A stretch of 48,989 bases of DNA from the IMG/VR virus record IMGVR_UViG_2541047945_000011; one strand, written 5' to 3'. Under the pieces are notes generated by a model that worked only from the letters and a program-made list of their open reading frames with translations, was not told where the DNA came from and did not search any database. Below are positions 26,005 to 26,895 of the stretch, in pieces. Made by a program: the position numbers and the translations under genes. Within the stretch, counting starts at the first letter, position 1. The number at the start of each line of letters is the position of its first letter. This stretch comes from a virus. Taxonomy: Duplodnaviria > Heunggongvirae > Uroviricota > Caudoviricetes.

Positions 26005-26895
26005 CTAAATACGCACTTTAAGATAAGTCAGCCCCGGATGAAGCCAGTAAGCCGGCACTTTTTTAAAGGGTGGAGTATTAAAATCACGAAGAAGAGCCTC
26101 CCGCACAATTGCATCCTTATCAGCACCACTGGCCAGCGCTTCAATCTCAGCGGCTACCTGAAGATATCCCATGCAACGGCCAACGCGCTTCATCAGCCCC
26201 TGCTTTTTATTGTTCTTCAGGTAATCAATGGCAAATTCAATGAGCTCCTCACTGTGCTGGTGCGATGGAGGTGTTACTTTCCCATTTTCTGAGATGGTTA
26301 TTTTCCCAGCATCACCGGATACAACAAAGGATGGCCGGTTACACTCCCATTCCAGCTCACTGAAATTATCATTATGAATACTGAAACACTCTGCGAGATT
26401 TCTGCTCATCACTTTCCGACAATAATCGTCAAACGCAGCAAACTGCTTTTCATCGCCAGAAGGCACCAATATCGACCATTTCTTATTCAGCTCAACGACG
26501 TAGCTCTCCAGTTTTTCAATACGTGATTCAACATCATCTTTTTCTGACCGCAGTGTTGACGGCGGCATCTTCAGAGAACAAGTAATTCTTCCCGGTAGCT
26601 TTCCTTTGTAGGTTATCAACACATCCTGCGCCTCTAAAATTACGGGGCGCTTTTCCGGCAACGGTTCGTTCCATTCACATAACCCGGCAGCAACATCCAT
26701 GAAAAACTGCTTCGCCTGCTTTTTCGCCTCAGCTTCGTAAAACTCCAGCGTGGCACCTTCAGTACGGTCAAGACTAATCGCCACATCTGGCAACAACAGC
26801 GACGCTTGCCCGTCACCTTCCGGCTTCACAGTAACAGTAACCTTATCCCCGTAATTATTTATCCCCTTAACAACCAGTTCATATTTTTTATTCAT
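26005..26895 (-). CDS. Hypothetical 296-aa protein inserted between holin and endolysin
   Basis: ATG at 26895 four nt after the S stop, with GGGGAGAG RBS inside the S 3' end; no recognised domain, no signal peptide. Confidence 0.6.
   Translation of the reverse strand: MNKKYELVVKGINNYGDKVTVTVKPEGDGQASLLLPDVAISLDRTEGATLEFYEAEAKKQAKQFFMDVAAGLCEWNEPLPEKRPVILEAQDVLITYKGKLPGRITCSLKMPPSTLRSEKDDVESRIEKLESYVVELNKKWSILVPSGDEKQFAAFDDYCRKVMSRNLAECFSIHNDNFSELEWECNRPSFVVSGDAGKITISENGKVTPPSHQHSEELIEFAIDYLKNNKKQGLMKRVGRCMGYLQVAAEIEALASGADKDAIVREALLRDFNTPPFKKVPAYWLHPGLTYLKVRI

Follow-up and report, generated by a model that had tools for sequence, protein, structure and literature searches.

YdfR of Escherichia coli K-12 (b1555, P76160) is encoded in the Qin cryptic prophage, where the gene order is essQ-ydfR-rrrQ. 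Experimental information on the YdfR family was found in the literature in one study only (RNA Biology 2026; PMC13232886), and for its Pfam domain, DUF1327, one incidental mention was found. A bacterial two-hybrid screen with RNase G yielded K-12 YdfR, which prefers the N-terminal catalytic half of RNase E (PMC13232886). Residues 1-72 are enough for the interaction with RNase E; a short-linker fusion of the full-length protein was positive with Rne 1-597 only (PMC13232886). When Strep-YdfR is purified, Rne 1-598 comes with it, and DNase-resistant nucleic acid was present in the eluate; the authors left the possibility that this RNA is carried by a contaminant (PMC13232886). Overproduction of YdfR altered few transcripts, and ydfR is nearly silent in the lysogen, with almost no reads under standard growth (PMC13232886). 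Phage proteins that target RNase E include T4 Srd, phiKZ Dip (gp37), and T7 gp0.7 (PMC4980113, PMC13232886). Srd resembles K-12 YdfR in that its target is the N-terminal half of the enzyme (PMC4980113, PMC13232886).

Members of the YdfR family also occur in Stx phages. Stx2_95 encodes a protein of 329 aa in the slot after an S21-type holin; gp44 of YYZ-2008 is a 114-aa form, and Stx2_12E129 has a 213-aa form with the C-terminal part only. No functional study of the ORF between S and R in Stx phages was found in the literature. Phages P27 and PA2 carry contiguous pinholin/SAR-endolysin cassettes of the S21/R21 type, in which the lysozyme gene starts 4 nt past the stop codon of S.

The window analyzed here is the whole 48,989-nt stretch of DNA of the IMG/VR record IMGVR_UViG_2541047945_000011. 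It is a lambdoid prophage of E. coli, whose genes for lysis and morphogenesis lie on the minus strand (Table 1). A long form of the ydfR gene stands in it between the holin gene S and the lysozyme gene R.

Table 1. Features of the prophage in the window that bear on the YdfR-family gene; positions count from the first letter of the window.
Feature	Position	Strand	Description
Rz i-spanin	24480..24953	(-)	PF03245, E 2e-47; downstream of lysozyme
Rz1 o-spanin	24542-24727		Lipoprotein ORF embedded in Rz
Lysozyme (R), SAR-type, RrrQ-like endolysin	25435..25968	(-)	177 aa; PF00959, E 2.4e-24; PHROG endolysin match
36-nt spacer ahead of lysozyme	25969..26004	(-)	AU-rich; no Shine-Dalgarno within 15 nt of ATG
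YdfR-family gene, long form	26005..26895	(-)	296 aa, 33.4 kDa, pI 5.95, soluble
Stop codon TAG of YdfR gene	26005-26007	(-)	
Conserved C-terminal domain, residues 185-296	26008..26343	(-)	Without Pfam family; AF2 fold
Linker and helices, residues 101-184	26344..26595	(-)	AF2 secondary structure
N-terminal DUF1327 region, residues 1-100	26596..26895	(-)	PF07041 match
Start codon ATG of YdfR gene	26893-26895	(-)	
S21-type class II (pin)holin S	26900..27115	(-)	71 aa; PF04971, E 1.5e-32; PHROG holin match
Stop codon TAA of S	26900-26902	(-)	
Shine-Dalgarno GGGGAGAG	26903..26910	(-)	Within 3' end of S; junction alignment A6
STnc100 sRNA match	30377..30566	(-)	Rfam RF02076, 132 bits
Terminator hairpin	30386-30407		In STnc100 match; terminator scan
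Q antiterminator	31659-32480		PF03589; upstream of YdfR gene
Integrase	46931-47956		Adjoins tRNA-Ser gene

A YdfR-family gene at the S/R junction

The first-pass annotation described the gene as unrecognised and without a recognisable domain, and this description does not hold. The Pfam family DUF1327 (PF07041) matched the N-terminal region with 136.9 bits, against a gathering cutoff of 25 (E = 2.7e-40). The phrog_1085 profile matched the protein end to end (E = 1.5e-189; residues 1-296 on profile positions 1-296 of 296), and K-12 YdfR is 46% identical to it over residues 1-74 (BLASTP, E = 7e-21). Public collections contain the identical 296-aa sequence on 966 contigs, under the name 'YdfR family protein', and its UniRef entry is named 'Phage protein'. 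The genomic context is also that of the family: a lambdoid prophage, with a class II holin just upstream and a lysozyme downstream. The NCBIfam scan of the 296-aa protein gave nothing significant. By these matches, the protein is almost certainly a member of the YdfR/DUF1327 family. The gene belongs to an already catalogued and very common prophage family, and stands in its usual place.

The YdfR family is tiny, with 74 representatives at 50% identity among 1.84 billion proteins, and a scan of genome contigs gave three loci only, all of Escherichia or Shigella. YdfR-like DNA was found in 3203 of the 5426 complete E. coli genomes (59%), with a median of 2 and a maximum of 9 places per genome. 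The 1.8-kb segment of S, the gene, and R was at least 80% covered in 552 of these genomes, including ST131 strains.

The minus-strand reading frame is open for 296 codons; when the local 5 kb was shuffled 300 times, no ORF of at least 296 aa arose by chance. No transmembrane segment or signal peptide was found in the protein, in which the Kyte-Doolittle 19-residue mean peaks at 0.75. The GC content of the gene is 46%, and that of S, R, and Rz is 54-55%. The holin S has a MYQM dual-start motif (starts M1 and M4), and is 100% identical to the holins of the phages P27 and PhiR5_1. The lysozyme, named 'lysozyme' or rrrQ in RefSeq, has a SAR-like N-terminus rich in Ala and Gly, and contains the motif E-8-D-5-T.

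At the junction, the TAA stop of S is followed by AGTG (4 nt) and then by the ATG of the YdfR gene. The same arrangement of the S end, TAA, 4 nt, and ATG precedes ydfR in the window, K-12, and Stx2_95, and precedes the lysozyme gene in P27 and PA2. The 3' end of S with its Shine-Dalgarno sequence was kept in all of the compared cassettes, and serves whatever gene comes after S. The first-pass annotation was thus correct that the gene starts 4 nt past the S stop, with its ribosome-binding site inside S, and that it encodes no transmembrane segment or signal peptide; the strand (minus) had gone unstated. Its picture of a gene coupled between S and the lysozyme was right for the upstream side only. 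On the downstream side, the lysozyme follows a spacer that has no Shine-Dalgarno sequence near the start codon (Table 1).

The AU-rich leader before the lysozyme, AAATATCC-ATG, is conserved in the YdfR-bearing cassettes, including that of K-12. In K-12, the bases of AAATATCC are the last codons of ydfR, and the ydfR stop overlaps the ATG of the lysozyme gene rrrQ, whereas the window gene is followed by the 36-nt spacer instead. K-12 and the window share the homologous N domain and the identical 4-nt gap after the holin; however, the K-12 protein has 103 aa, with neither the coiled coil nor the C domain of the 296-aa protein. The Stx2_95 protein is 77.5% identical to the window protein. The Stx phages share the slot and the modules with the window, but they differ in the combinations of N, middle, and C parts and in the lysozyme spacers. 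The YdfR-bearing cassettes have a lysozyme of the RrrQ type (MNTKIKYGL...).

The holins of P27 and PA2 are 97-100% identical to that of the window. In these phages, the lysozyme has the very start that the YdfR gene has in the window, whereas the window lysozyme is a different allele (RrrQ type), which comes after the leader without a Shine-Dalgarno sequence. Because these near-identical holins have the lysozyme at the start position of YdfR, the comparison shows that the YdfR gene is an insertion exactly at the S/R junction, which inherited the translational start of the lysozyme. The insertion shifts the lysozyme 930 nt downstream. The view that canonical cassettes of this kind are contiguous holds for P27 and PA2; however, S-YdfR-R is a common order as well, and annotations have shown it for a long time, as in the Qin prophage of K-12.

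The gene Q lies upstream of the YdfR gene, and between the two, downstream of Q, an STnc100 match with an internal terminator hairpin was found at 132 bits (Table 1). From its position, we infer that this match represents the pR' leader and tR' terminator that open the late transcript. In the promoter and terminator scans, the coding strand showed no promoter-like site and the interval between S and R no strong terminator, and no Rfam element was found in or beside the YdfR gene. The anatomy of the region gives good support to co-expression of the YdfR gene with the lysis genes from the Q-dependent late transcript. Such co-expression had been proposed from the position of the gene, and the uninterrupted S-R interval and the Shine-Dalgarno sequence embedded in S agree with it.

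Domain plan, fold, and selection

The folded N core of the protein (residues 1-73) has three strands and a long helix, with AF2 pLDDT values of about 70-90. Residues 74-118 form a low-confidence linker (pLDDT below 50 at 74-120), which is followed by a predicted coiled-coil helix (119-143) and a variable helix (149-171). The middle part (101-184) is the most variable and most indel-rich stretch in the alignments of relatives (A1 and A2), and the C-only proteins begin exactly at the coiled coil. The C domain consists of a three-strand beta meander and four helices. The full AF2 model gave this domain a pLDDT of 84-96; modelled by itself, the domain reached a pLDDT of 84.3 and a pTM of 0.76. The invariant positions of the C domain include one His and the motifs GRxMxxLQxAA, PxK, and WxxPGxxYL.

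The C domain is under purifying selection (dN/dS about 0.2). In identical comparisons, its dN/dS was 0.18-0.21, versus 0.47-0.54 for the N domain, and no other part of the protein is as constrained; the value for the whole gene against the Stx2_95 copy was 0.39. The C domain is 35-43% identical in distant full-length relatives and in stand-alone Salmonella proteins, and it was found alone in prophages of both E. coli and Salmonella. A profile search for informative fusions of the C domain gave stand-alone or YdfR-fused forms only, all from Escherichia, Shigella, and Salmonella.

The same slot can contain different combinations of the modules. These are the N domain only (K-12, 103 aa; YYZ-2008, 114 aa), the N domain with the coiled coil and the C domain (the window gene), and the coiled coil with the C domain only (213 aa; Stx2_12E129 and E. 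coli O178:H19). Relatives with about 30% identity (P0142, P0150, P0155, P0166, and P0180) retain the full three-part plan. Since these relatives have the full plan, the long form is probably ancestral, and K-12 YdfR is probably truncated.

The gene has been labelled differently in RefSeq. In three RefSeq genomes, the loci of which are identical or 99.8% identical, PGAP annotated only the first 336 nt, as 'YdfR family protein, incomplete, missing C-terminus' (pseudogene), and residues 113-296 were left without annotation in these loci. Taken at face value, this label would mean that only the first 112 codons matter and that the remainder is a decaying pseudogene tail; the existence of short forms (103-114 aa) agrees with it. 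However, the frame is open over its whole length, and the supposed tail contains the most constrained domain, which folds confidently and is conserved in distant proteins. The dN/dS values, the fold confidence, and the distant conservation effectively refute the pseudogene tail, which is extremely improbable. Because of the same evidence and the open frame, the RefSeq label is very probably an artefact, and the 296-aa call is better. A likely cause is that a mosaic protein was aligned to shorter or differently tailed references.

Sequence searches of the PDB with the whole protein, the C-domain profile, and the N-domain profile gave no credible match. The best PDB sequence match, a PhoU homologue, was judged to be due to chance (E = 0.004 over 35 residues). 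No structural relative of the C domain was found in the PDB, and the Foldseek search against the BFVD viral structures gave nothing at E < 1e-3. In Pfam and PHROG scans, the distant relatives matched only DUF1327 (below threshold), phrog_1085, phrog_26186, and phrog_32636, all of which are labels without a function. Profile searches and structure prediction had been suggested in the first-pass annotation as a way to identify the protein. They provided the DUF1327 and phrog_1085 assignments and a confident fold for the C domain, but no structural relative in the PDB or BFVD.

Placement in relatives and candidate roles

In every E. coli or Stx-phage example examined, the gene begins 3-4 nt past the holin stop. 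Outside E. coli and Shigella, in Salmonella prophages and other contigs, both full-length and C-only relatives stand between Q and the holin. These relatives adjoin holins of the PF04971 or PF16080 type, some of them overlap an upstream DUF4406 gene, and HicAB or ParE-type toxin-antitoxin pairs were found near them. The neighbourhood survey of homologues, which had also been suggested beforehand, thus gave the S-R slot in E. coli and Stx phages and the Q-holin slot in distant relatives. The S-R position is inessential, because distant relatives stand between Q and the holin. From this comparison, the constant feature is the head of the late operon beside the lysis genes, rather than the place between S and R. 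Among the E. coli copies, frameshifts or truncations are frequent, and most cassettes with this holin type have no YdfR gene. The frequent truncation or absence, together with the placement outside the S-R pair, argues against an integral role in lysis by pinholin and SAR endolysin.

A role in lysis timing was considered in this context. The protein, or the mere presence of its reading frame, might tune lysis, either by acting from the cytoplasmic side on the pinholin or the SAR endolysin, or by lower or later translation of a lysozyme displaced from its S-coupled start. The constant place after the holin in E. coli and Stx phages would fit this role, as would the occupation of the usual start of R, which leaves R with a leader that has no Shine-Dalgarno sequence. 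A K-12 ydfR mutant was also scored in a screen for envelope integrity (Paradis-Bleau 2014, cited in PMC13232886); however, we infer that polarity on rrrQ could account for this phenotype. The protein is soluble and has no transmembrane segment, and it showed no similarity in Pfam or PHROGs to any lysis family (holin, antiholin, endolysin, or spanin). Relatives are found upstream of the holin, with other genes between, or with a different holin family. Moreover, about three quarters of the deposited phages with this holin type have no YdfR match (434 with the holin and 106 with a YdfR-family match, position in the cassette aside), and damaged copies are common. A lysis regulator, as the first-pass annotation had suggested, is therefore less likely than it seemed, and a role in lysis timing is considered unlikely.

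The gene might also be an accessory 'moron' with a role in anti-defence, superinfection exclusion, or host fitness, unrelated to RNase E or lysis. Its GC content is 8-9 points below that of the flanking lysis genes, and it is absent from the P27 and PA2 cassettes with the matching holin; both are features of morons. The gene is modular, with fast gain and loss of domains, many alleles, and up to 9 copies per genome, and the late-operon region of relatives carries HicAB, ParE, the NanS-p esterase, and stx. However, a classical lambdoid moron has its own promoter and terminator, and neither was found flanking this gene. It should therefore be silent in the lysogen, and the K-12 ydfR reads are almost absent under standard growth (PMC13232886). 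The top match among the PADLOC-DB defence models was PbeC, which was not significant (E = 0.03-0.05, about 10 bits), and no similarity to known anti-defence proteins was found in the PDB or BFVD. An anti-defence or exclusion factor, which had been proposed earlier, thus has no PADLOC match behind it, and an accessory role of this kind is considered unlikely.

A third proposal was a cargo enzyme that is let out at lysis. Expression alongside the lysis genes is the sole point in its favor. No enzyme family was matched in Pfam or NCBIfam, and no catalytic motif or enzyme-like fold was found. The invariant residues are mainly hydrophobic, Gly, or Pro; His, Arg, and Lys occur among them once each. 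The proposal thus found no support, and an enzyme of this kind is hardly to be expected.

The RNase E lead and its meaning

The 46% identity of the window protein to K-12 YdfR covers the RNase E-binding region. Homology to a known, CHARACTERISED lysis protein had been named in the first-pass annotation as the result that would speak against an unrecognised gene. Half of this was found: the homologue is known, but it is barely characterised, and it points to RNase E rather than to lysis (PMC13232886). By homology, the long form might be a soluble cytoplasmic late accessory protein, the N domain of which acts on RNase E and modulates RNA decay; we put the probability of this reading at roughly 0.4. 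The N domain would dock on the host RNase E, as homology to K-12 YdfR suggests, and the docked protein might modulate the decay of host or phage RNA late in the lytic cycle. The C domain may be a second, independent binding or effector module. The protein would then stand outside the lysis machinery, and its place beside S would reflect a hotspot for accessory genes in the late operon and a convenient translational start. A role as a late modulator of host RNA decay is considered more likely than one in lysis, although it is unproven.

The phage proteins Srd, Dip, and gp0.7 provide an analogy of possible function only; they redirect RNA decay by binding to RNase E. No sequence or fold similarity to them was detected in the 296-aa protein. 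They are early proteins of virulent phages, whereas the window protein belongs to the late genes of a temperate phage.

Several other observations bear on the RNase E model. The C domain is basic (pI 9.2), which is in line with the model. On the other side, the binding is known only for the 103-aa K-12 protein, from a two-hybrid assay and a pull-down with an overproducer. The C-only versions, which have no putative RNase E-binding part, persist in the identical slot, and the N domain is less constrained than the C domain. The E. coli gene stands right after S in all of the examples examined, and a lysis role would fit this as well.

A more specific form of the RNase E model can be conceived, in which the long form is a RapZ-like adaptor for RNase E, encoded by the phage. 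The DUF1327 region would dock on the enzyme, the coiled coil would oligomerise, and the C domain would bind a specific RNA. Such an adaptor is quite improbable. If it were true, the C domain would present RNA to RNase E or shield it, and would be a new RNA- or protein-binding fold. The adaptor would also set the stability of the late transcript of S and R, which in Stx phages also contains stx, and thereby the lysis timing or the toxin yield.

The gene has little weight as a discovery, as the family is catalogued, the exact sequence is public, and K-12 has the identical layout. The present analysis adds the domain plan with the constraint on the C domain, the placement at the S/R junction, the relatives between Q and the holin, and the probable mislabel in RefSeq. 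The familiar K-12 YdfR is probably a truncated remnant, and the most constrained part of the family, the C domain, has no Pfam family. With a presence in 59% of complete genomes and up to 9 copies in one genome, the YdfR family ranks with the most common prophage genes of E. coli that are still uncharacterised. The RNase E interaction provides a concrete hypothesis for it, namely a late modulator of RNA decay in temperate phages. Since the gene lies inside the module for lysis and Shiga-toxin release, its function bears on the biology of Stx phages.

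Putative late leader and flanking genes

The Rfam match to the STnc100 sRNA has a position that fits the late operon's pR' leader/tR'. Two tRNA genes are located between this leader and the antiterminator gene Q; the tRNA genes of Stx phages are placed likewise, and stx genes are absent from the window. An esterase gene, a DUF1378 gene and a DUF826 gene follow the tRNA genes. The 111-aa ORF on the opposite strand has no Pfam match, and its counterpart in M16807 is annotated as 'anti-adapter protein IraM'. The lipoprotein-like ORF directly downstream of the spanin genes Rz/Rz1 has a similar gene after the spanin in the cassette of a distant relative (L010). 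Features elsewhere in the prophage are also listed in the table.

Features of the prophage and of the compared cassettes (L-numbers denote compared loci; other coordinates refer to the window)
Feature	Location	Strand	Remarks
TonB C-terminal domain ORF, lipoprotein-like	23843-24223	-	PF03544, E 1e-12
Lysozyme gene start	25968	-	spacer 25969-26004
Holin dual start	27106-27115	-	Met1 and Met4
Hairpin	27153-27182	-	13-bp stem
DUF826 gene	27192-27437		
DUF1378 gene	27475-27657		
NanS-p-like esterase	27794-29770		DUF1737 + SASA + DUF6645
111-aa ORF	30016-30351	+	between late leader and esterase gene
STnc100 sRNA match	30377-30566	-	Rfam, 132 bits; ends in terminator hairpin 30386-30407
tRNA-Arg(tct) and tRNA-Met(cat)	31265-31515	-	
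sok antitoxin RNA (hok/sok) match	34878-35049	-	Rfam
DicF, isrK and C4 antisense RNA matches	42621-43100	+	Rfam; immunity region
824-aa ORF	44195-46669	+	PF16473 (Rv2179c-like 3'-5' exoribonuclease domain) at the C-terminus, E 1.6e-67; near integrase end
DUF4406 gene	L009 1089-1487; L013 4639-5004; L023 3689-3973; L024 473-790		
Extra small gene	L003 3645-3959; L004 3584-3844; L014 3194-3508; L015 3012-3332	-	

Starts of the holin and lysozyme genes

The holin has an S21-like dual start (MYQM...), which suggests an antiholin/holin pair, and a stem-loop lies directly upstream of the S start. The lysozyme gene lacks a preceding Shine-Dalgarno sequence. It is preceded by an AU-rich leader (AAATATCC-ATG), which is conserved in all the YdfR-bearing cassettes examined. 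In K-12, the bases of this leader are the final codons of ydfR, and the ydfR stop overlaps the lysozyme ATG.

Neighbours and annotation of the YdfR family gene

At four loci of distant relatives, the YdfR-like gene is directly preceded by a DUF4406 gene, which in L009 and L013 overlaps the YdfR-like start. The distant relatives also carry toxin-antitoxin pairs (HicAB or ParE/HTH) between Q and the YdfR-like gene. In several E. coli and Stx-phage cassettes, an extra small opposite-strand gene separates the YdfR-like gene from the lysozyme gene. One record annotates this small gene as DUF1823-containing; it is absent from the window.

Three RefSeq loci (L017, L018, and L019) contain copies of the YdfR family gene identical or 99.8% identical to that of the window. 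RefSeq/PGAP labelled these copies as truncated pseudogenes 'missing C-terminus', and the annotation covers the first 336 nt only. The rest of the gene (window 26005-26559 (-)), with the conserved C domain (residues 185-296), is thus left unannotated. Contrary to this pseudogene label, the evidence says that the 296-aa frame of the YdfR family gene is intact and functional.
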